Source: Candidatus Multivorans sp.
GTDB taxonomy: Bacteria; Acidobacteriota; Thermoanaerobaculia; Multivoradales; Multivoraceae
DNA: 64,000 bases
NCBI GenBank assembly: GCA_965203495.1
Contig: CBDBDB010000002.1
Coordinates: 3,115 to 67,114 of the forward strand
Direction: 5' to 3'
The translations under genes and the position numbers were made by a program. The notes beneath the pieces were generated by a model. It saw only the letters and a list, made by a program, of their open reading frames with translations. It had not been told where the DNA came from and ran no database searches. Below are positions 1 to 53,131 of the stretch, piece by piece. The stretch's first letter is position 1, and every line of letters begins with the position of its first letter.

Positions 1-1572
1 CTCTCCGGGCTCGACACCGCGATCGTCCTCGTCTACCTGGCGGGGGTACTGGTCATCGGCGCCGGCTTCAGCCGCTACGTCAGGACCAGCGGCGACTACC
101 TGCTCGCCGGCCGCGCCCTGCCCTTCTGGGCGATCGGGATGTCGATCGTGGTCAGCGATATCGGCGCGACGGACTTCATCGCCGTCGCCGGCGGCACGTA
201 CCGCTACGGCCTCGCCCAGGCCAACTTCGACTGGCTCGGCTCGATGCCGGCCCTGTTGATCGCCGCCTTCCTCATCGTCCCGTTCTACTGGCGCAGCGGC
301 GTGTACACCGTGCCGGAGTTTCTGGGCCGCCGCTATGGCGACGGCGTGCGCAGCTTCCTGGCTCTTGCCTGGGGCGTCATCCTGGCGCTGAACCTCGGGA
401 TCATGATCCACGCCACCGCGCTCCTGATGCGCACGGTGCTCGGCTGGGATCCGCGGTTCTCCATCTGGGTCACCACGGCGATCGTCGGCATTTACACGAT
501 CAGCGGCGGCCTGGCGGCGGTCGTGATGACCGACGTCCTGCAGCTCATCGTCATGTTCGTTGGGGGCGCCGCCCTGGTCGCGCGCGCTCTCCACGAGGTC
601 GGCGGCCTGGGGGCGCTGCGGGACGGCATCCTCAACCAGGGCGCCCAGTACGCCGACCACTTCTCGCTCTACCTGCCCCACGACACGACGACTCCCTTCC
701 CCTGGACCGGCATCGTGCTGGGGCTCGGCATCGTGCTCTCCGTCGCCTACTACACGGGCAACCAGACGATGGTGCAGCGGGCCCTCGGAGCGCGCAGCGA
801 GTGGGACGCGAAGGCCGGCGTGCTGTTGGCGGGCTTCCTGAAGCTCTTCATCCCGCTGCTCGTCGCCCTGCCGGGACTCGCCGCGATCCTGATCGTACCC
901 GACCTTGCAAGCGCCGACGAAGCCGTGCCGAGCCTGATCGCCCGGTTGCTGCCGTCCGGCCTGCGCGGCCTCATGTTCGCCGCCTTCCTGGCGGCTCTGA
1001 TGTCGAGCGTCGACTCGAACCTGAACTCGGCAACGACCCTCTGGAGCCGCGATCTGCTCGGTCGATTGCGCCGACGCCTGGGCGGAGCGGAGTTCGGGAC
1101 CGCGGCGGAACTCCGTTTCGGCCGCATCCTATCGGCCATTCTGTTGCTGACGGCCGCGTTCATCGCGCCCGAGATCGAACAGCGCTTCAGCAACATCTAC
1201 AACGCGATCCAGACCGTCTTCTCGCTGATCCAGGGGCCGACTCTCGCCGTGCTCCTGCTCGGCATCCTCTGGAGGCGAGCGAACCGTTACGGCGGCGCGA
1301 CCGGTCTCGTCGCCGGCGTGGGCCTCTGTCTGCTGCTCAACAGTCCCGCCATGGACGGGTTGTTCCCGTCCGAGGAGCCGTTCCTGTTCGTCGCCTGGTG
1401 GTCCTTCGTGTTCACTCTGGGCGTGACCTGGCTCGTCAGCCGGTTGACGCCGGCCGAGCCGCCGGAACGGCTGCGCGGCCTGGTCTGGGGCGAAGTGCGG
1501 AACGACGAAGCGCTTCAGACCGCACTGCGCAGCCGGGTAGCCGGCCTCCGGCGCGACGGCGGCTCGCGATGA
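1..1572 (+). CDS. Sodium:solute symporter (SSS family), 5'-partial
   Basis: The frame is open from base 1 (LSGLDTAIVLVYLAG...DYLLAGRALPFWAIGMS). It has many TM helices and the SSS motifs YTISGGLAAVVMTD and LMSSVDSNLNS. Confidence 0.93.
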   Translation, partial: LSGLDTAIVLVYLAGVLVIGAGFSRYVRTSGDYLLAGRALPFWAIGMSIVVSDIGATDFIAVAGGTYRYGLAQANFDWLGSMPALLIAAFLIVPFYWRSGVYTVPEFLGRRYGDGVRSFLALAWGVILALNLGIMIHATALLMRTVLGWDPRFSIWVTTAIVGIYTISGGLAAVVMTDVLQLIVMFVGGAALVARALHEVGGLGALRDGILNQGAQYADHFSLYLPHDTTTPFPWTGIVLGLGIVLSVAYYTGNQTMVQRALGARSEWDAKAGVLLAGFLKLFIPLLVALPGLAAILIVPDLASADEAVPSLIARLLPSGLRGLMFAAFLAALMSSVDSNLNSATTLWSRDLLGRLRRRLGGAEFGTAAELRFGRILSAILLLTAAFIAPEIEQRFSNIYNAIQTVFSLIQGPTLAVLLLGILWRRANRYGGATGLVAGVGLCLLLNSPAMDGLFPSEEPFLFVAWWSFVFTLGVTWLVSRLTPAEPPERLRGLVWGEVRNDEALQTALRSRVAGLRRDGGSR

Positions 1573-1808
1573 GAACGATCCTCGAGTTCGTCCTCGGACC
1601 GATCAACGACGCAATGGGCGCCTTGCCGCCGTGGAGCGCCCGCGTCGCCGTGGCCTTGCTCCTCGTCCTGCCCGCGGCCGCCGTGTGGCGGCTCAGCCGC
1701 GACTGGGTGTTCAGCGGCGCGGCCGACCGCGCGAAATGGCGCGACCTCAGGCTCTGGGCGGCGCTGTTCGTCGTGCCCTACCTCGTGATCTACCTGCTGC
1801 TGGCCTGA
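1569..1808 (+). CDS. Small membrane protein (79 aa) coupled to the SSS gene
   Basis: ATGA overlap with the SSS stop. Two hydrophobic segments, ending WRDLRLWAALFVVPYLVIYLLLA. Confidence 0.75.
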   Translation: MRTILEFVLGPINDAMGALPPWSARVAVALLLVLPAAAVWRLSRDWVFSGAADRAKWRDLRLWAALFVVPYLVIYLLLA

Positions 1809-1828
1809 CCAACCGCCCCCGCGACGCA

Positions 1829-2047
1829 ATGACCTCCGACCACGCCAGCCGAGACCGCTCCACGGCCCGCATTCTGGGCATCTTCCTGGCGGCGCTGGCG
1901 ATCCCGGTTCTCGTGGGAGGTTTCTCGGCGGCGGAGACGATCGACCTCGCGCTCGGCGTGGCTGCCGGCGCCGCGCTGCTGCTGGCGGCAGCCATACTCA
2001 TGCTCTACGGCCGCCGCGGCCGCCCCGAACGGACGGAGAGACGCTGA
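1829..2047 (+). CDS. Small two-TM hypothetical protein (72 aa)
   Basis: ATG at 1829 (MTSDHASRDRSTARILGIFLAAL...), two hydrophobic helices, in operon position. Confidence 0.6.
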   Translation: MTSDHASRDRSTARILGIFLAALAIPVLVGGFSAAETIDLALGVAAGAALLLAAAILMLYGRRGRPERTERR

Positions 2048-2604
2048 ATCCGCCGCCGCGGCCGGCGCCGGCGATCACGCCAAGGATCGCCGGCGACGAA
2101 GCACGTCGACGCCTGGCGGGAGGCCGTCTGCGCCGACTCCGAGGCGGGCGGCCCGTCGCCTTCGAACTCCTGTACCTGCCGCACTGGCTCGCCGTCTACG
2201 AAACGCTGGAGACTGCCGCGGGACCACCCACGCCCGGCAGCGGCGCCAGGCCCGGCGACCGGCTCGCCGTACTCGTCTGCCGGCTCAGCGGGCAGGCCGC
2301 GCACATCCGACTGGACAGCCTCGACGTCGCGCCTGGATCAACAGCCCTTCCGCCCGCGCTCCAACCCGCCGAAGCCGAAGAGCGGGCCGCCGACTTCGCC
2401 GATCGCGTGTTGCTGATGGCGGCGCGCGGCAAGCGCCTCCGTGAACGCGGCAGGTTGCTTCGTTCCGAGCCGTGCGGTTACCCGTACTGGGTCGAGTACG
2501 TGGAGCGCGGCCGAAACGTCGACTTCCGCGCCCTCGACGCCGTCTCCGGCAAGCGCGCCGGCGCCGCCGTCCGCGCAGCGGTCGCCCGGGGAATCGCGGG
2601 CTAG
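2044..2604 (+). CDS. Hypothetical protein (about 186 aa), probable CTG start
   Basis: The frame of ORF 2407-2604 stays open back to a CTG overlapping the previous TGA. The translation is protein-like (FELLYLPHWLAVYE...GYPYWVEY...FRALDAVSG). Confidence 0.6.
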   Translation: MNPPPRPAPAITPRIAGDEARRRLAGGRLRRLRGGRPVAFELLYLPHWLAVYETLETAAGPPTPGSGARPGDRLAVLVCRLSGQAAHIRLDSLDVAPGSTALPPALQPAEAEERAADFADRVLLMAARGKRLRERGRLLRSEPCGYPYWVEYVERGRNVDFRALDAVSGKRAGAAVRAAVARGIAG

Positions 2605-2622
2605 CTAGACTTCGACCTGCAC

Positions 2623-4407
2623 ATGGGAAAGCACCCGCCAACTCCCGGCCACCAGCCGGTCCACGGCGAGATGACCTGGGACGAGTCGGTCGCCTGGCTG
2701 ACGGCCCCGGGCGCCGACTGGGAACTGGCGACGGAGACGGTCCGAGGCGTTGCCTACAGGGTCTTCAGGAACTTGCCGCCGACGCTCCGCCGGGTCTACG
2801 ACCAGGCGCGCGAGGACCACCGCGAGAAGGACTTTCTCGTGTTCCAGGACGCGCGCCTGACCTACAACGAAGCGGTCGAACGAGCAGCGGCGCTCGCTCA
2901 CCAGTTGGTCCACCGCTACGGAGTCAAGAAGGGCGACCGGGTCGCCATCGGCATGCGGAACTGCCCCGAGTGGGTCATCGCCTTCATGGCAGTCACGTCG
3001 TCCGGCGCCATCTCGGTTTCGCTGAACGGCTGGTGGTCGGGCGAAGAGCTGGAGTACGGCCTCAAGGACTCCGGCGCCAGGCTCGCCTTCTTCGACCAGG
3101 AGCGCTACGAGCGGGTCGCCGCCAGGCTGCCGGGCCTGGTCGTCAAGAGCATCGGCGTGCGCTGGAAGGAGGAGACGCCCGAGGGCGTGGACGATTTCGA
3201 GGACATCTGGCGCGAAGCCGTCGGTCAACCGATGCCCGACGTCGACCTGAACCCTGACGACGACGTGACGATCCTCTTCACGTCGGGTACCACCGGGTTC
3301 CCGAAGGGCGCCGTCTCCACCCACCGAGGCGTCCTCAGCGGCATCGGCAGCTGGGGCTTCTACAGCGCCCAGCGGATCGCCATGGGGCTGCTCGAGGAAC
3401 CGGAGGAAAACCCGGAGTTCCAGCCGTCGATCCTGATGCCCCTGCCGCTGTTCCACGTCAGCGGCAGTCACGCCGGCCTTCTCGCCTCCTTCGGCGTCGG
3501 CCGCAAGATCGTGATGATGTACAAGTGGGACCCGGAACTCGCCCTGGAGCTGATCGAGCGCGAACGGATCACCTCGTTCAACGGCGTCCCGACCATGACC
3601 TGGGAGATGCTGCAGTCGCCGTCGCTCGAGACCCGCGACCTGCGGAGTCTCATCGCCGTCTCCGGCGGCGGCGCGCCGATTCCCGGCGGCATGGTCGACC
3701 GCCTGCAGACCATGATGCCGGACAAGCACTGGTCCTTCGGCTGGGGAATGACGGAGACGAACGCCGGCGGCGCCGGCAACACGGATGAAGGCCTGGTCGA
3801 GAAGCCGGACAGTTGCGGCAGGCCCTGCCCGATCGTCGAGTTGAAGATCATCGATGACGACGGCGCCGAGCTGCCGCCGGGGGGGCGGGGCGAACTGGTC
3901 ATGAAGTCCTCGATGAACATCCGCGGCTACTGGAACCGGCCCGAGGTGACCGCCGAGACGATCCAGGACGGCTGGCTGCGCACCGGCGACATCGCCGAGA
4001 TCGACGAGGACGGCTTTCTCTACATCCGCGACCGCAAGAAGGACATGGTGCTGCGCGGCGGCGAGAACATCTACTGCGCCGAGGTCGAGCGCGTCGTCTA
4101 CCAGCATCCCGCCGTCTACGAGGCCGCCGCCTTCGGCGTCCCGGACGACCGGCTGGGCGAGGAACTCGCCGTCGTCGTGGTGCCCAGGGAGGGCGCCGAG
4201 CTCGACGCGGCCGGCGTCCGCGCCCACGTCGCCGAGCGCCTGGCCCGATTCAAGACGCCGCGCTACGTGTGGCTCCAGGACGAGCAGTTGCCACGCGGCG
4301 CCACCGAGAAGATCGACAAGCGCGCGCTGCGGGACCGGATGCTCAGGGAAGCCCCGGAATTCCGCCGACGCCGACCTGATCGGACGACCGAGGCGACCGG
4401 CAGATGA
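2623..4407 (+). CDS. Long-chain acyl-CoA ligase (ANL/AMP-binding family)
   Basis: Motifs ILFTSGTTGFPKG, WGMTET, GWLRTGD, DRKKDMVLRGGENIYCAEVE. Confidence 0.93.
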   Translation: MGKHPPTPGHQPVHGEMTWDESVAWLTAPGADWELATETVRGVAYRVFRNLPPTLRRVYDQAREDHREKDFLVFQDARLTYNEAVERAAALAHQLVHRYGVKKGDRVAIGMRNCPEWVIAFMAVTSSGAISVSLNGWWSGEELEYGLKDSGARLAFFDQERYERVAARLPGLVVKSIGVRWKEETPEGVDDFEDIWREAVGQPMPDVDLNPDDDVTILFTSGTTGFPKGAVSTHRGVLSGIGSWGFYSAQRIAMGLLEEPEENPEFQPSILMPLPLFHVSGSHAGLLASFGVGRKIVMMYKWDPELALELIERERITSFNGVPTMTWEMLQSPSLETRDLRSLIAVSGGGAPIPGGMVDRLQTMMPDKHWSFGWGMTETNAGGAGNTDEGLVEKPDSCGRPCPIVELKIIDDDGAELPPGGRGELVMKSSMNIRGYWNRPEVTAETIQDGWLRTGDIAEIDEDGFLYIRDRKKDMVLRGGENIYCAEVERVVYQHPAVYEAAAFGVPDDRLGEELAVVVVPREGAELDAAGVRAHVAERLARFKTPRYVWLQDEQLPRGATEKIDKRALRDRMLREAPEFRRRRPDRTTEATGR

Positions 4408-4965: not shown

Positions 4966-5685
4966 ATGCAGAGCACTGTAGTAAAGTCGCCTTCGCTCAG
5001 GACGAAGCGCAAGCGCGAGGACACCGGACTCGATGAACGGCAAGCGAAGGCGGCAACGGAAGTGACCGAGGTCGAGCAACCGCCCACCTCGCTTGAGCGG
5101 GATGTCGACGACCTGAAACGGGATGTGGCCGCCCTGAAGCGGACGGTGGTCACGAACGAGCGCTTCGAGAGCTTTCGGGCCGAACTGACGGCTCGGCTCG
5201 AAGCCACCGAGGAGCGCGTGAAGGCGGAGATCGTCGAGCTTCGAGCGGAGACTTGCGGCGAGTTCAAGGCCGTCCGGCACGAGATGTCCGAGCTGCACAC
5301 GGAGACGCACGGCGAATTCAAGGCCATCCGGCACGAGATGTCCGAGCTGCGCACGGAGACCCGCGGCGAGTTCAAGGCCGTCCGGCACGAGATGTCCGAG
5401 CTGCGCACGGAGACCCGCGGCGAGTTCAAGGCCGTCCGGCACGAGATGTCCGAGCTGCGCACGGAGACCCGCGGCGAGTTCAAGGCTGTCCGGCACGAGA
5501 TGTCCGAGCTGCGCACGGAACTCGGCGGCAACATGGAAGGTCTGAGACGCGAAACCGCGGCGAGGTTCGAAAGCCTGGACAGCCGGCTGAAGCTCGTCGT
5601 CGGCCTCCTCTGCGCCGGCCTGACTCTCTACACCGGCACGACCGTCTCGCTGATGATCCTCCTGTTCCGCAACACGATAAGCTGA
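4966..5685 (+). CDS. DUF1640/CCDC90-like coiled-coil protein with C-terminal membrane anchor and tandem repeats
   Basis: ATG at 4966 after GGAG. Short head (GLDERQAKA), long coiled coil with 18-aa repeats, terminal hydrophobic helix. Confidence 0.65.
   Translation: MQSTVVKSPSLRTKRKREDTGLDERQAKAATEVTEVEQPPTSLERDVDDLKRDVAALKRTVVTNERFESFRAELTARLEATEERVKAEIVELRAETCGEFKAVRHEMSELHTETHGEFKAIRHEMSELRTETRGEFKAVRHEMSELRTETRGEFKAVRHEMSELRTETRGEFKAVRHEMSELRTELGGNMEGLRRETAARFESLDSRLKLVVGLLCAGLTLYTGTTVSLMILLFRNTIS
5257..5520 (+). repeat. In-frame 54-bp tandem repeat, about 5 copies (GEFKAVRHEMSELRTETR)
   Basis: Unit ggcgagttcaaggccgtccggcacgagatgtccgagctgcgcacggagacccgc starts at 5257, 5311, 5365, 5419 and 5473. 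There are no spacers. Confidence 0.95.
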
Positions 5686-16304: not shown

Positions 16305-16361
16305 CGCGAGGGAGAAGGTCCCGCTACGGCGAGCGGAGCCGCAGCCGCAACAGGGGATCGG
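16305..16361 (-). repeat. Dispersed 57-bp intergenic repeat, copy A (copy B at 43781-43837)
   Basis: 52/57 identical by hand alignment to the reverse complement of 43781-43837. Confidence 0.85.
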
Positions 16362-40851: not shown

Positions 40852-40920
40852 GGGCTTCTTCTCCTCAGGCGCTCAGCGACTTGCTGCCAGCCAAGCTAGC
40901 AGGTGCGCCGCCGTCGGGCT

Positions 40921-40973
40921 GCGCCGTCGCGCAGGGAACACACCCCTGAAGGCCGACGAGGGCGTCGGCGCAC
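40921..40973 (+). repeat. 53-bp double-hairpin repeat, copy 1 (inverted copy at 43980-44032)
   Basis: 48/53 identity by hand. Contains the hairpin GCCGACG-AGGG-CGTCGGC. Confidence 0.85.
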
Positions 40974-41045
40974 CCAGGGCGAGGCTGTTCGTTCCTTGCA
41001 ACCCTCGGCGTGACGGACCGGGCGCCCGACGTTCGCCACGGGCTG

Positions 41046-42185
41046 CTAGACCGAGCGCTCGGCCAGCCATTCCTCGAGGCGCGGCTACAGGCGGCGCACC
41101 GCGTTCGCCCCGGCGACCAGACTGACGTGGCCGCCCTTCAGCACGAGTTCCCGCTTGTCCTCGGCGCCGACCATTTCGACCAGGTCGCGGGCCGCCTCGT
41201 ACGGCACGATGTGGTCGTGCTCCGCGACGACGTGAATGAAGGGAACCCGGATGTTCGAGAGGTCGACGAGCCTGCCGTCCAGCCGGAATTCGCCCTTCAT
41301 CAGCAGGTTCCGCTGTTGGAGCTCCTTCGTCGTCTGACGGAAGCACTCGCCCGGAAAGGGGATCTGGTCGGCTGCCCAGCGCTGGAGCCTGCGGTACGAC
41401 GTGACGAACTCGTCGTTCCACATGTTGTCCCAGAGCCGCACCCGGCCCGCGACCTGTGACGCCGGACGCAGGGCGTTGAAGGAGGCGTAGAGCATCTGCG
41501 GCGGAACGTTGCCCAGTCGGTCGACGATCCGGTCGACGTCGAAGTGGGCCGGATCGGTCCAGGTCCTGAACAGGCCCATCCCGTCGTAGTTGACGGGCGT
41601 CGTGAAGCAGGCCAGATTGCGCAACCGCCCGCCGGACGACACGTCGGGATGAAGCGCCGCGTAGAGCGCGGCGAGAAGACCGCCCATGCAGTAGCCGACG
41701 ATCGAGACGTCCGGCTCGCCGCTCCGCTCGTGAACGACCTCGACGCACTCGGGAATGAAGTCGAGCACGTAGTCCTCGAGACGCAGGCGGCTGTCCTCGG
41801 ACCGGGGCGTGCCCCAGTCGATCATGTAGACGTCAAAACCGCGGTCGAGCAGAAACTCGATCAGGCTGTGGCCCGGGGCCAGGTCGAGAATGTAGGGCTT
41901 GCTGATCAGGGACATGACCAGCAGGATCGGTGTCCGATACACGTCGTCCACCCGCGCCCGATAGTGGTACAGGCGGAGGACGCCCCGGCTGTGGACCGCG
42001 TCCTTCGTCGTCAGGCCTACTCCCGGATCGCCTGTCGAGATGTACTCGAGACCATTGAAGCGTCGACGGACGGCGCGCTCGACCTCGCGCCGGACGCTCC
42101 GCGCCACGTCCTGGGCGGCGTCGACGGCCCCATCCAGGACCGGCGTCTCTCCTCGGCCCGACGCGCCGCCCGGCGGACTGGTCAT
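41046..42185 (-). CDS. phaC: PHA synthase catalytic subunit, class III type; premature TAG at 41085-41087
   Basis: Lipase box GYCMGG, AEHDHIVP (Asp), GGHVSL (His), PYILDL, DVYMIDWG. The frame continues after the TAG: AVRRL*PRLEEWLAERSV*. Confidence 0.92.
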
Positions 42186-43780: not shown

Positions 43781-43837
43781 CCGATCTCCTGTTGCGGCTG
43801 CGGATCGGCTCGCCGTAGCGGCACCGTCTCCCTCGCG
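43781..43837 (+). repeat. Dispersed 57-bp intergenic repeat, copy B
   Basis: Matches the reverse complement of 16305-16361 at 52/57. Confidence 0.85.
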
Positions 43838-43979
43838 GGCGACGTGTCGGCGTTCCCGGAGGCCTGCGGCCCGTAGCGCGTCCGGAGCCCGGCGCTTCGC
43901 GCCGGATGCCGGCGGGGACGCCCGGGGCGCCCAGTCTGTTCTGCCGCGGGTTCTGCATGGAGCAAACACGGCGCACCGT

Positions 43980-44032
43980 GTGCGCCGACGCCCTCGTCGG
44001 CCTTCCGGGGTGTATTCCCCGCACGACAGCGC
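43980..44032 (-). repeat. 53-bp double-hairpin repeat, copy 2
   Basis: Inverted copy of 40921-40973. Confidence 0.85.
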
Positions 44033-44180
44033 GGCTCCGCGGCTGCGAACGCTGCCAGGACTGAGCCGCCCGCCACTCGCTGCGGCGCGATGCCCGAGGA
44101 CGGCGGTCGTCGAGGCGCCGGCGTCGCGTAGAGTACCGGCCGTCGACAACCACTGAACCCACACACGGAGACAGGCAGAG

Positions 44181-50195: not shown

Positions 50196-51083
50196 CTACA
50201 GCGTGGCGTGGCCCGCCACCAGCGTGGTCCAGATCAAGGGCAGCACGACCAGCGAACCCAGAAAGAGGATCCGCGCGCGTACGGGGCCGCGGTCGAGGAC
50301 GAAGCGAACGGCGAGCAGAGAGAAGGCGCCGCCGAGACACGCCGAGGCGATGGCGAAGGCCGGAGGAGTCAGGCCGACCGCCGACGCGGGAAGACACAGG
50401 ACGGCGAGCAGGAGAGACCAGAGAAGAGAGTGCGTTGCCGTCCGTCCGCCGTCCGGATCCGTTGCGGCCAACACCTTGAACCCCGCCCTGGCGTAGTCGT
50501 CGCGGTGGAGCCAGGCCAAGGAGTGGAAGTGCGGAATCTGCCAGGCGAAGACGATGCCGAAGAGAAGCCACGCCTCGACCGTCACGGCCCCGGTCGCGGC
50601 GGCCCAGCCGATGACCGGCGGCAGGGCGCCCGGAACCGCGCCAACGAGGACGGCCGCCGATGTTCGGCGCTTGAGCGGCGTGTAGATCCAGGCGTAGCTG
50701 ACGAGGGTCGCCAGGGCCACGACCGCGGAGAGCGGGTTGGCGCCAAGAGCAAGGACGACGAGGCCCGTGACGCTCAAGACGGCGGCAAAGAGGGAACCTG
50801 CCGCCGGCGACACGTCTCCCAGGGGCATTGGCCGGGACCGGGTACGGGCCATCAGGGCGTCGAGGTCGCGCTCCGCGACCTGGTTGAACGCGGCGCCCCC
50901 CGCGGCGACGAGACCGGCGCCGACCAGCACGGAGAGCAGGACTCCCAGGTCGAGCGCGCCGGCGCCGAGGTAGTAGCCGATGCCCACCGTGCCAACGGCC
51001 AGGGCATTGAGCCGCGGCTTGGCCAGTGCCAGCCACGGGGCCGTGCGGCTGGGCCGGGCCGCTTCGGAGGCAATCAGCGTCAC
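50196..51083 (-). CDS. cyoE: Protoheme IX farnesyltransferase (heme O synthase)
   Basis: LAKPRL, NQVAERDLDALMARTRSRP, YTPLKR, GAVPGALPPVIGW, WQIPHF. GTGA overlap with the upstream gene. Confidence 0.93.
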   Translation of the reverse strand: MTLIASEAARPSRTAPWLALAKPRLNALAVGTVGIGYYLGAGALDLGVLLSVLVGAGLVAAGGAAFNQVAERDLDALMARTRSRPMPLGDVSPAAGSLFAAVLSVTGLVVLALGANPLSAVVALATLVSYAWIYTPLKRRTSAAVLVGAVPGALPPVIGWAAATGAVTVEAWLLFGIVFAWQIPHFHSLAWLHRDDYARAGFKVLAATDPDGGRTATHSLLWSLLLAVLCLPASAVGLTPPAFAIASACLGGAFSLLAVRFVLDRGPVRARILFLGSLVVLPLIWTTLVAGHATL

Positions 51084-52063
51084 GCCGGGACCCGTCCGGG
51101 GCCGCCGCTGACGCTCGGGGCGAAGCGGGCCGAACGGATCGCCGAAGCGTCGCCGAACCAGGCGCGGTGCACCCGCAGCGCGAGCGCCACCGAAACGACC
51201 CACAGCAGACCGCCGGTCGCCACGTGCGCCGTGTTGACGTGCGGCTGCAGGCCGCTCCAGACGGTCCAGGCGCCGAGACCGATCTGAGTCAGCAGCACGG
51301 CGCCCAGAAGCAGCGCCGGGCGGACGAGTTCCGGCCGGTGGCGATGAAGCCGGAGAACCCGCGCGATCAGGGCCGCGGCCGCGACGGCCACCGCGAGAGC
51401 GCCCAGTCGATGCGCGAAGTGAAGCGAGATGCCCGGATTCCACTCGGGCGGGAACAGCCGACCGAAGGCCAGCGGGAAGTCCGGGATGGCGAGCCCGGCG
51501 TCGTTGTGACGCATCGTCGCGCCGAAGAGAATCTGGACGTACACGAGAACCGGAACGGCCAGCGCCAGTCGGGCCAGCAGCGGGTCGGCCAGCGGTACCG
51601 AGCGTCCGAAGCCGGCGCGCCAGCCCGGCGACGTGAAGACGCCCAGGCTCACGACGAGGGCGAAGAAGAGCTGGGCCAGACCGGCATGGCTGATCGAGAT
51701 CGGTTTCGGCAGCAGGTAGATCACCGTGATGCCGCCGAGCAGTCCCTGCGCAACGACCGCGGCGAGCGCCGACCAGGCCAGCCGACGCACCCAGGCGCGG
51801 GTCTCGACGCGCGCGGCCCACACGGCCAGACCGATCGTCATCAGACCGACGACGCTCGCGATCAGACGGTGACCGTGCTCGTAGAGGATGCCGCCCACCA
51901 TCTTCGAGAACGGGAAGGAGAACATGAAGTAGCCGTACGTGTTCGGCCAGTCGGGAACCGCGAGTCCCGAGTCGGTGCTCGTGACCAGACCGCCGGCCGC
52001 GATCAGCAGCAGGGACGCCGCGGCCAGCAGCCGGAGGTAGTAGTGCAGCCAGCGCACAACCAA
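51080..52063 (-). CDS. ctaA: Heme A synthase (COX15/CtaA family)
   Basis: GGLVTSTDSGLAVPDWP, EHGHRL, LLGGITV, HAGLAQ, HFAHR, HVATG. Confidence 0.9.
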   Translation of the reverse strand: MVVRWLHYYLRLLAAASLLLIAAGGLVTSTDSGLAVPDWPNTYGYFMFSFPFSKMVGGILYEHGHRLIASVVGLMTIGLAVWAARVETRAWVRRLAWSALAAVVAQGLLGGITVIYLLPKPISISHAGLAQLFFALVVSLGVFTSPGWRAGFGRSVPLADPLLARLALAVPVLVYVQILFGATMRHNDAGLAIPDFPLAFGRLFPPEWNPGISLHFAHRLGALAVAVAAAALIARVLRLHRHRPELVRPALLLGAVLLTQIGLGAWTVWSGLQPHVNTAHVATGGLLWVVSVALALRVHRAWFGDASAIRSARFAPSVSGGPGRVPA

Positions 52064-52147
52064 CCCACTCTATCCCCGCCGGTCGGACCCTTCCAGGCCC
52101 TTCCGGCCGGCCGCGAAGCCTCGGGCCGGGCCGCCTCGGCCGACGAT

Positions 52148-52315
52148 CTTGACAGCCCGTGGCGAAAGTCGCGCTGCATTCGAGCGGCCATGCATCCCGC
52201 CCGGCATCGTTGCTCCTCGGTCGAAGTTGGCCCGAACTGCTCCCTCGTCGCGCCTTGCCGGGCGGGCGCCTGACCACTCTCGGCGCCACGCGCACTTCCA
52301 CCACGGACTGTCAAG
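52148..52315 (-). ncRNA. Putative structured RNA or palindromic element (168 nt, unassigned)
   Basis: Nested inverted repeats: a 22-bp outer stem, a 10-bp middle stem and a perfect 11-bp inner stem. All non-Watson-Crick pairs in the stems are G-U on the minus strand. Confidence 0.5.
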
Positions 52316-52335
52316 GCGGCGCGGGTCATCGATCT

Positions 52336-52361
52336 CGGCGGCGGTCCCGCAGCCGCCGCCG
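52336..52361. terminator. Hairpin downstream of map
   Basis: CGGCGGCGG-TCCCGCAG-CCGCCGCCG, about 25 nt past the map stop. No U-tract. Confidence 0.4.
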
Positions 52362-52384
52362 CTCGTTCATCCCGGCATCGCCCG

Positions 52385-53131
52385 CTACGGCAGCGTCATC
52401 ACCAGAGGCTTCCCGCGCGTGACGACGATCGTGTGCTCGAACTGGATCGTCGTCGTTCCGGGCTTGTTGAGCAGCGTCCAGCCGTCCCTGGCGGTCTTCG
52501 CCTGTTCGCGGCCATCCGTCAGAAAGGGCTCGATCGTCAGCGCCATGCCGTCATGCAGGAACCGGTCGTCAGCCGGATCGTCGAACCCGGGCACGAACTT
52601 GGGATCCTCGTGAAGCGAGCGGCCGATGCCGTGCGAGCCCAGGTTGCGAATCAGGCCGAAGCCGGCCCGGCTTGCCGTCTCCTCGATCGCGCGGCCGATG
52701 CCGCGCAGGCGGCGGCCGTGGCGAGCCTGTCGCATCGCGGAGCGCAGCGCGCGCCGGGTGGCCGAGATCATGCGCCGCCGCACTTCGTTCACCGGCGGCA
52801 CCGCGTACGCCGCGCCGGTGTCGCTGAAGTAGCCGTCGAGTTCGAGGGACACGTCGATGTGGACCAGGTCGCCAGCTTCGATCCGCCGCCCGCCCGCGAT
52901 GCCGTGTGCGACTTCCTCGTTGACGCTGATGCAGGTGGCCGCTGGGAAGTCGTAGCACAACTCGGGCGCCGAACGCGCGCCGCGAGCTTCCATGTACTCG
53001 CGGCCGATCAGGTCGAGCTCGGCGGTAGTCATGCCCGGCACGAGAGCCGCGCCCATCCGCGCCAGACACCGGGCCGCCACCCGACCCGCCCGACGCAGCC
53101 CGTCCAGGTCCTCGCGGCCATCGATCGTCAT
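52385..53131 (-). CDS. map: Type I methionine aminopeptidase
   Basis: CISVNEEVAHGI, DVSLELDGYFSDTG, SHGIGRSLHEDP, TIEPFL, QFEHTIVV. Confidence 0.95.
   Translation of the reverse strand: MTIDGREDLDGLRRAGRVAARCLARMGAALVPGMTTAELDLIGREYMEARGARSAPELCYDFPAATCISVNEEVAHGIAGGRRIEAGDLVHIDVSLELDGYFSDTGAAYAVPPVNEVRRRMISATRRALRSAMRQARHGRRLRGIGRAIEETASRAGFGLIRNLGSHGIGRSLHEDPKFVPGFDDPADDRFLHDGMALTIEPFLTDGREQAKTARDGWTLLNKPGTTTIQFEHTIVVTRGKPLVMTLP

Follow-up and report, generated by a model that had tools for sequence, protein, structure and literature searches.

The question raised by this locus is whether a long hairpin, lying just upstream of the genes for heme A/O synthesis in a sponge-associated bacterial lineage, regulates those genes or is an object of another kind. 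The hairpin occupies positions 52148-52315 of the window, as we call the whole analyzed stretch of 64,000 nucleotides from Candidatus Multivorans sp., and lies within the 320-nt spacer between map and ctaA; map, ctaA and cyoE are all encoded on the minus strand. An initial annotation, made from the letters of the sequence, had proposed an undescribed sRNA, a cis-regulatory leader for ctaA-cyoE, or a palindromic mobile element. In the following paragraphs we set out why the hairpin is very probably one copy of a CTAG-associated, non-coding hairpin MITE, present here as a lineage-specific insertion, and no conserved regulator of heme A synthesis. The features of the locus, listed in the direction of the minus strand, are these:

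52385-53131, minus strand: map, methionine aminopeptidase (Peptidase_M24, Pfam), the upstream neighbor
52353-52370, minus strand: remnant of a CarboxypepD_reg gene, its first six codons (ATGAACGAGCGGCGGCGG), at the left edge of a 3.0-kb deletion
52316-52352, minus strand: left flank of the hairpin, a remnant of the 3' end of a CoA-transferase gene (CoA_transf_3), homologous to the relatives' ...GCCGAGATCGACGAACTGCGCCGCC...
52148-52315, minus strand: the whole hairpin, that is, the probable MITE copy with 5-nt variant ends CTTGA...TCAAG (from sequence and RNAfold)
52153-52310, minus strand: the 158-bp core common to the repeat family (from the depth step, the loose-end consensus and alignments)
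52289-52315, minus strand: 5' terminal inverted repeat, outer stem arm (CTTGACAGTCCGTGGTGGAAGTGCGCG)
52207-52255, minus strand: conserved apical core, with the two purine-rich strands CGACGAGGGAGCA and CCGAGGAGCAAC
52148-52174, minus strand: 3' terminal inverted repeat, outer stem arm (...GCGCGACTTTCGCCACGGGCTGTCAAG)
52136-52147, minus strand: right flank, the last CoA-transferase codons (ATCGTCGGC), followed by CGA versus the relatives' TGA stop
52067-52096, minus strand: promoter-like motif CTGGAAG-N17-TAGAGT, 9 nt before the GTG of ctaA (52057)
51080-52057, minus strand: ctaA, heme A synthase (COX15-CtaA), with a GTG start as in the relatives
50196-51095, minus strand: cyoE (UbiA), directly after ctaA

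The structure itself is as it had been described. Folded with RNAfold, the minus strand of 52140-52325 forms a single long nested hairpin of -116.2 kcal/mol, compared with a mean of -83.3 for dinucleotide shuffles (z -7.77), none of 200 shuffles being as good, whereas the plus strand reaches -88.2 kcal/mol (z -2.35). DNA parameters give the same asymmetry, with -57.7 for the minus and -45.4 for the plus strand. The outer arms span 22-27 nt and differ at 3 positions over their first 22 nt, and the inner stem of 11 nt is perfect; arms and inner stem are found once each in the window, with chance expectations of 0 and 0.19. Depending on whether the variant ends are counted, the element measures 158-168 bp in the window. 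The nested pairings of the 168-nt hairpin and the two GGAGCA motifs at its apex are all present, and the statement that the non-Watson-Crick pairs are wobble pairs on the minus strand also holds, since the window copy, laid on the aligned rod of the family, has 8 G-U pairs and 0 A-C pairs.

Known RNA families and coding capacity were considered as explanations of such a structure. Rfam returned no family match for the hairpin region on either strand, even at E<=10, which agrees with the earlier remark that SRP, 6S and riboswitch signatures are absent; at gathering score, the whole window yielded nothing relevant to the hairpin, and five other copies of the family had no match. Open reading frames across the element have no Pfam match, and no reading frame is conserved among the family copies. 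Downstream of the hairpin there is no U-tract 3' of the stem (AUCGUCGGCCGAGG / AUCGUCGG stand there instead) and no terminator was called, nor did a simple consensus scan call a sigma-70-type promoter on the element.

The nature of the element emerges from its copies elsewhere. Run X1 is the run that contains the window (91-95% of its sampled words), and its contigs were placed on window positions 51700-52800. Their summed depth is 4-5 in map and ctaA and 300-900 exactly over 52153-52310; as X1 resembles a metagenome, this depth stands for many copies in the sample and not for the copy number of one genome. In all, 117 contigs were placed, about 100 contigs have differing flanks, and contigs break inside the element. 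Those of 1-12 kb, at depths of 3-8 (the window's own being 4-5), leave the element into mutually disagreeing sequence, and in four runs (X1, X7, X16 and X2) the consensus next to the element is CTAG on both sides.

Copies were also searched for in assembled genomes, by a 17-mer pattern scan of one genome per species with subsequent sorting by BLAST and nhmmer. Among the 118 matches listed, 109 were chance matches in GC-rich genomes and 9 were members of the family. In all, at least seven full and three partial copies come from four other assemblies. Six full copies are among the matches listed, namely L053 in a Holophagales MAG, L077, L050 and L028 in one Thermoanaerobaculia MAG, and L009 and L060 in a MAG titled Pseudomonadales; the seventh lies on the haplotig L125. 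The neighbors of these copies, as identified with Pfam, are unrelated to heme A. They include a beta-lactamase-like gene, two ABC permease genes of one operon, Rieske and PQQ dehydrogenase genes, ccmF, an MFS transporter gene, luciferase-like and pectinacetylesterase-like genes, and phaC together with an acetyltransferase gene. A 22-mer scan of metagenome contigs gave one chance-like match of 22 nt, a scan of viral contigs gave two chance-like matches and no further copies, and blastn of plasmids with the family consensus found neither copies nor IS ends. The best named relatives of CtaA are sponge-derived Holophagales MAGs, and most runs having words in common with the window are labeled as sponge or coral-reef metagenomes; the family occurs in Acidobacteriota associated with sponges, as well as in some other bacteria, including at least one gammaproteobacterial MAG (as titled). 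Many scattered copies, which the initial annotation had named as the observation that would speak against a regulator, are thus what was found: the roughly 100 X1 contigs with different flanks and the full copies in four other assemblies bear out its third proposal, the palindromic mobile element, and leave the regulator reading without support.

All members share one architecture. The terminal inverted repeats are about 25 nt long (CAGCCCGTGGCAGAAG...), with arms conserved across eight copies, and the interior is self-complementary as well, so that a rod can be formed by either strand of the DNA or by a transcript. Family copies can be aligned from CAG to CTG, and beyond the stretch equivalent to 52153-52310 most of them read CTAG. 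This palindromic tetranucleotide borders most copies on both sides, often at the stop codon of a gene, and because it is a palindrome, direct and inverted duplications of it look the same. A longer subfamily of 236-256 bp, comprising L077, L050, L028 and L125, carries an extra 70-95 nt in the apex. The additional sequence is inserted at one fixed point after GAGGAGC and itself forms two GC-rich hairpins.

The window copy and L050 depart from the CTAG pattern, with CCTTGA preceding the initial CAG and TCAAG following the final CTG. The same TTGA...TCAA variant ends occur in a minority of contigs of X1, X16 and X24, where the contigs bearing them have a depth of 8-24 at 52148-52150, compared with more than 200 just inside the element. 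These variant flanks are inverted and not direct, and a simple target-site duplication does not account for them. The initial claim that there is no target duplication can therefore be kept in part: no direct repeat borders the window copy, but its flanks do form the inverted pair CTTGA...TCAAG. In L050, the gene upstream uses the TGA in the flank as its stop codon, and the left flank of the window copy also resembles host sequence of the relatives (CCTGGACA and CCTGAAGA). Several target-site models were tried and rejected. Duplications of 4 bp (CTAG), 2 bp (TA) or 3 bp (TNA), a blunt cut between the CT and AG of the tetranucleotide, and a host-derived CTTGA each fail to fit the window copy and L050 cleanly, and the loci compared offer no clean example of an empty and a filled site with an exact duplication.

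How the element came to lie beside ctaA can be reconstructed from ten orthologous loci of relatives, whose CtaA proteins are 82-92% identical. In all ten, map forms a single block with a CarboxypepD_reg gene (600 aa) and a CoA-transferase gene (393 aa), and in the closest relatives ctaA follows directly after the CoA-transferase gene. The window is without 3.0 kb equivalent to L120 6956-9956, and the CarboxypepD_reg and CoA_transf_3 genes are largely gone. About 55 nt of the CoA-transferase gene are left, joined to the six CarboxypepD_reg codons, and the element sits inside this remnant. In the relatives, the end of the CoA-transferase gene is uninterrupted (CGCCGCCTGAAGATCGTCGGTTGA / ...GCCGAGATCGACGAACTGCGCCGCCTGAAGATCGTCGGTTGA); at the same site the window reads ...GCCGAGATCGATGACCCGCGCCGCCTTGA, then the element from CAG to CTG, then TCAAGATCGTCGGCCGA. 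The element is found at this site in none of the ten relatives, the sole match in them being the phaC-adjacent copy in L125, and its absence from ten orthologous loci identifies it as a lineage-specific insertion. The element entered the last ~15 codons of the CoA-transferase gene, in the window lineage only, and a 3.0-kb deletion removed most of that gene and of its neighbor, leaving the element between map and ctaA. An IS-mediated adjacent deletion, with the element exactly at the deletion joint, was considered and rejected, since 37 nt of CoA-transferase remnant lie between the two; at that distance, simple deletion of sequence adjoining the end of the element does not describe the event. 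L050 was also considered as an orthologous insertion and rejected, the upstream gene there being luciferase-like.

The orthologous region varies in other respects among the relatives. In the closest of them, a ~30-nt unit (CCGCTGGGTGCGCGGGTCTTCCGAC...; L129:4433-4696) is repeated in tandem about eight times in the spacer that separates the CarboxypepD_reg gene from the CoA-transferase gene. A BrxC/PglY-type (BREX-like) defense gene lies directly beside map in L124 (16473-20978) and L129 (1-1631), while the window and other relatives have 3-keto-disaccharide hydrolase or Rieske/TPP genes in that place.

The window holds the trace of another insertion of the same family:

41024-41049, plus strand: isolated right end (CCGACGTTCGCCACGGGCTGCTAG) of a second, older copy, located at the stop of phaC

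At this site a full copy is present in L125 (541-776), 26 nt are left in the window, and 14 nt in L124 (~720-740), the sister haplotype of L125, which retains only CCACGGGCTGCTAG at the phaC stop codon. The series of full copy, 26 nt and 14 nt shows that the element has repeatedly undergone internal deletion. Orthologous sites are polymorphic for the insertion in two places, at the 3' end of the CoA-transferase gene and at phaC.

Other repeats of the window are noted here for completeness. Two inverted repeats that bracket the PHA genes, 40896-41049 and 43925-44058, resemble a related MITE family bounded by CTAG/CTGG and have the core GGAAGGCCGACGAGGGCGTCGGCGCAC in common; the first of them starts with CTAG followed by CAGGTGCG and ends with the right end of the hairpin family, CCACGGGCTG, followed by CTAG. 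The inverted repeat pair 16305-16361 / 43781-43837 (57 nt, 91% complementary, 27 kb apart) is probably another small dispersed repeat. A tandem array at 5173-5583 has a 54-nt period, with about six overlapping copies of 63-91% identity.

Dispersal does not by itself describe this family, as the fold is maintained from copy to copy. On eight aligned copies, a rod of 50 pairs has 93.7% of its cells paired, and in a control in which the partners were slid by 1-3 columns pairing falls to 31-44%. Ten pairs of the rod have compensatory changes on both sides, a number that none of 500 shuffles reaches. Some of these pairs are located in the terminal repeats, the two ends of which must fit one transposase, and are alone no proof of selection for pairing; others, such as 44/227 and 62/207, belong to the inner stems. 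Identity among the copies is 100% in the unpaired bulge, 87-88% in the purine-rich apical strands and 79-83% in the outer stems.

The preference for one strand is likewise a property of the family. On the element strand that corresponds to the minus strand of the window, the eight copies have 47 G-U versus 12 A-C cells, or 31 versus 12 when two invariant G-U pairs are set aside; counted by columns the figures are 14 versus 11, which is not significant, and the cells are not independent of one another. Three two-step compensatory paths were observed, all three via G-U intermediates. Six of the eight copies fold better on that element strand, by 5-31 kcal/mol, and four of these six are antisense to host genes. 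In L053, L077, L028 and L125 the element strand runs antisense to the genes on either side; in the window and in L050 it is the sense strand, and in L009 it has the same direction as the downstream ccmF. Because the G-U excess stays on the same element strand even in antisense copies, the bias is that of the element and not of host transcription, and the link that had been drawn between the G-U pairs and the coding strand of map and ctaA reflects a coincidence of orientation. The bias may be inherited from a master copy or may be selected. We regard it as possible, although rather unlikely, that one element strand, as ssDNA or RNA, acts as a functional folded module with conserved purine-rich loops and is selected wherever the element is inserted; if so, such a module could serve as an intermediate of transposition or as a site bound by a protein.

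The promoter-like motif listed above is located downstream of the hairpin, between it and the ctaA start. In seven of seven aligned loci TAGAGT does not vary and CTGGMRG is kept as the first block, even where a NUDIX or PIN gene, and not the CoA-transferase gene, precedes ctaA. Judged by this conservation, CTGGMRG-N17-TAGAGT, although not called by the consensus scanner, would be a promoter belonging to ctaA itself, followed by a very short leader, and its placement 9 nt before the GTG suggests a nearly leaderless ctaA-cyoE mRNA. If this interpretation is right, the hairpin lies outside the ctaA transcript unless transcription of map reads through; at most, map read-through transcripts would carry a very stable stem-loop. 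As ctaA keeps this conserved motif downstream of the element, we infer that the element has no evolved role for ctaA-cyoE. The proposal of a cis-regulatory leader is not supported, given the position of the motif as well as the ten orthologous loci, in which homologues upstream of ctaA were looked for and none carries the hairpin there.

A more modest role, acquired after the insertion, deserves separate consideration. The copy in the window strain might have been co-opted, such that its stem-loop in a map read-through transcript, serving as a processing site, stabilizer or roadblock, alters the expression of ctaA-cyoE or of map. In this strain the better-folding element strand is the coding strand, the deletion placed the element directly between map and ctaA, and Correia and ERIC elements affect neighboring mRNAs in such a way. 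Family copies are also plentiful in one sponge metatranscriptome, where their summed depth is 700-3000 and that of the relatives' map and ctaA 36-52, but these contigs are undirected, may include DNA and derive from loci other than that of the window; the family copies are probably transcribed somewhere. Further points weigh against co-option: orientation is a coin toss, with three copies sense, four antisense and one upstream of a divergent gene, the motif retained by ctaA stands downstream of the element, and the hairpin is not followed by a U-tract. We therefore consider co-option of this copy unlikely.

An ordinary MITE copy thus remains the preferred reading, and the family has the corresponding properties, being shorter than about 600 bp and non-coding, with terminal inverted repeats, dispersed copies and insertion polymorphism. 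In Type II bacterial MITEs, similarity to autonomous IS is limited to the terminal inverted repeats (PMC10969869). Like them, the element is small and non-coding, has terminal inverted repeats, occurs in many dispersed copies that are intergenic or at gene ends, differs in presence between relatives, and forms a hairpin as transcript or single strand. Unlike them, it is maintained as a rod through its entire interior, and not only at its ends, with purine-rich internal loops that are conserved.

The source of its mobility may be sought in its termini, which are possibly of the IS1182 type; mobilization would then occur in trans, by an IS1182-type DDE transposase. ISKpn6 (IS1182 family) in pKpQIL has CTAG at both ends, as most copies of the element do, and its ends read GAGCCTGCGCGGCAGAAG / GAGYCTGCGCGGCAGA..., compared with CAGCCCGTGGCAGAAG in the element, with AGCC...CG.GGCAGAAG in common. 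The alignment of these ends has 16/22 identities with two gaps, which 467 and 1052 of 5000 shuffles reach, and as this similarity is not significant the IS1182 link is no more than suggestive. ISKpn6 itself, which unlike the element is 1.5 kb long and encodes a transposase, is not the parent, and a search of the retrieved loci for an IS with the element's ends found none.

Comparable objects are found in other bacteria. The Correia elements of Neisseria (CREE/NEMIS) are ~100-160 bp long with terminal inverted repeats of ~26 bp, insert at a short TA-containing palindrome and are co-transcribed with their neighbors as hairpins, and they are documented to be processed by RNase III and to create promoters. 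The element resembles them in size, in its terminal repeats and in the TA-containing palindrome CTAG beside most copies, although there is no sequence similarity. ERIC/IRU sequences of enterobacteria are imperfect palindromes of ~127 bp in transcribed intergenic regions, with a G-U excess on one strand. The imperfect palindrome and the one-strand G-U excess recur in the element, whereas sequence, hosts and ends differ; moreover, the orientation of ERIC relative to transcription matters, while that of the element looks random (3 sense, 4 antisense).

A further comparison is with the RAYT-mobilized REPINs, hairpin-forming repeats which also have a strand-specific fold. On this model the element would consist of two inverted REP-type units, moved as ssDNA by RAYT or by an IS200/IS605-type tyrosine transposase. 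A long imperfect hairpin in many copies would be expected of such a unit, the strand asymmetry follows the element, with G-T pairs tolerated on one strand in six of eight copies, and the TTGA...TCAA variant ends are inverted and without direct duplication. However, at 158-256 bp the element exceeds typical REPINs, its terminal repeats are DDE-IS-like and together with the CTAG flanks resemble those of IS1182-type IS, and no RAYT gene was noticed in the window or the retrieved loci; the same genome may also hold an IS1182-like element with AGCCCGTGG termini. A REPIN-like origin accordingly appears very improbable to us. Least credible of all is a locus-specific structured RNA, be it an undescribed sRNA or a heme- or metal-responsive cis-regulatory leader of ctaA-cyoE, which has the strong strand-asymmetric fold and the position upstream of ctaA in its favor, but against it the ten orthologous loci that have no element upstream of ctaA, the similar copies beside unrelated genes in four other assemblies, the location within the remains of a pseudogene, with the conserved promoter-like motif of ctaA downstream of it, and the lack of an Rfam match.

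The hairpin MITE is a real feature with an exceptional fold, and yet it is an ordinary kind of object. In the literature searched we found no description of this hairpin family, which seems to be undescribed, even though the kind of element is known. At the window locus, the notion of a leader that senses heme or metals ahead of the heme A/O synthesis genes is a false lead, and the hairpin marks a lineage-specific insertion beside a 3-kb gene loss. The family as a whole is a high-copy, structurally maintained MITE, the annotation of which would keep its copies from being mistaken time and again for a "novel structured RNA".
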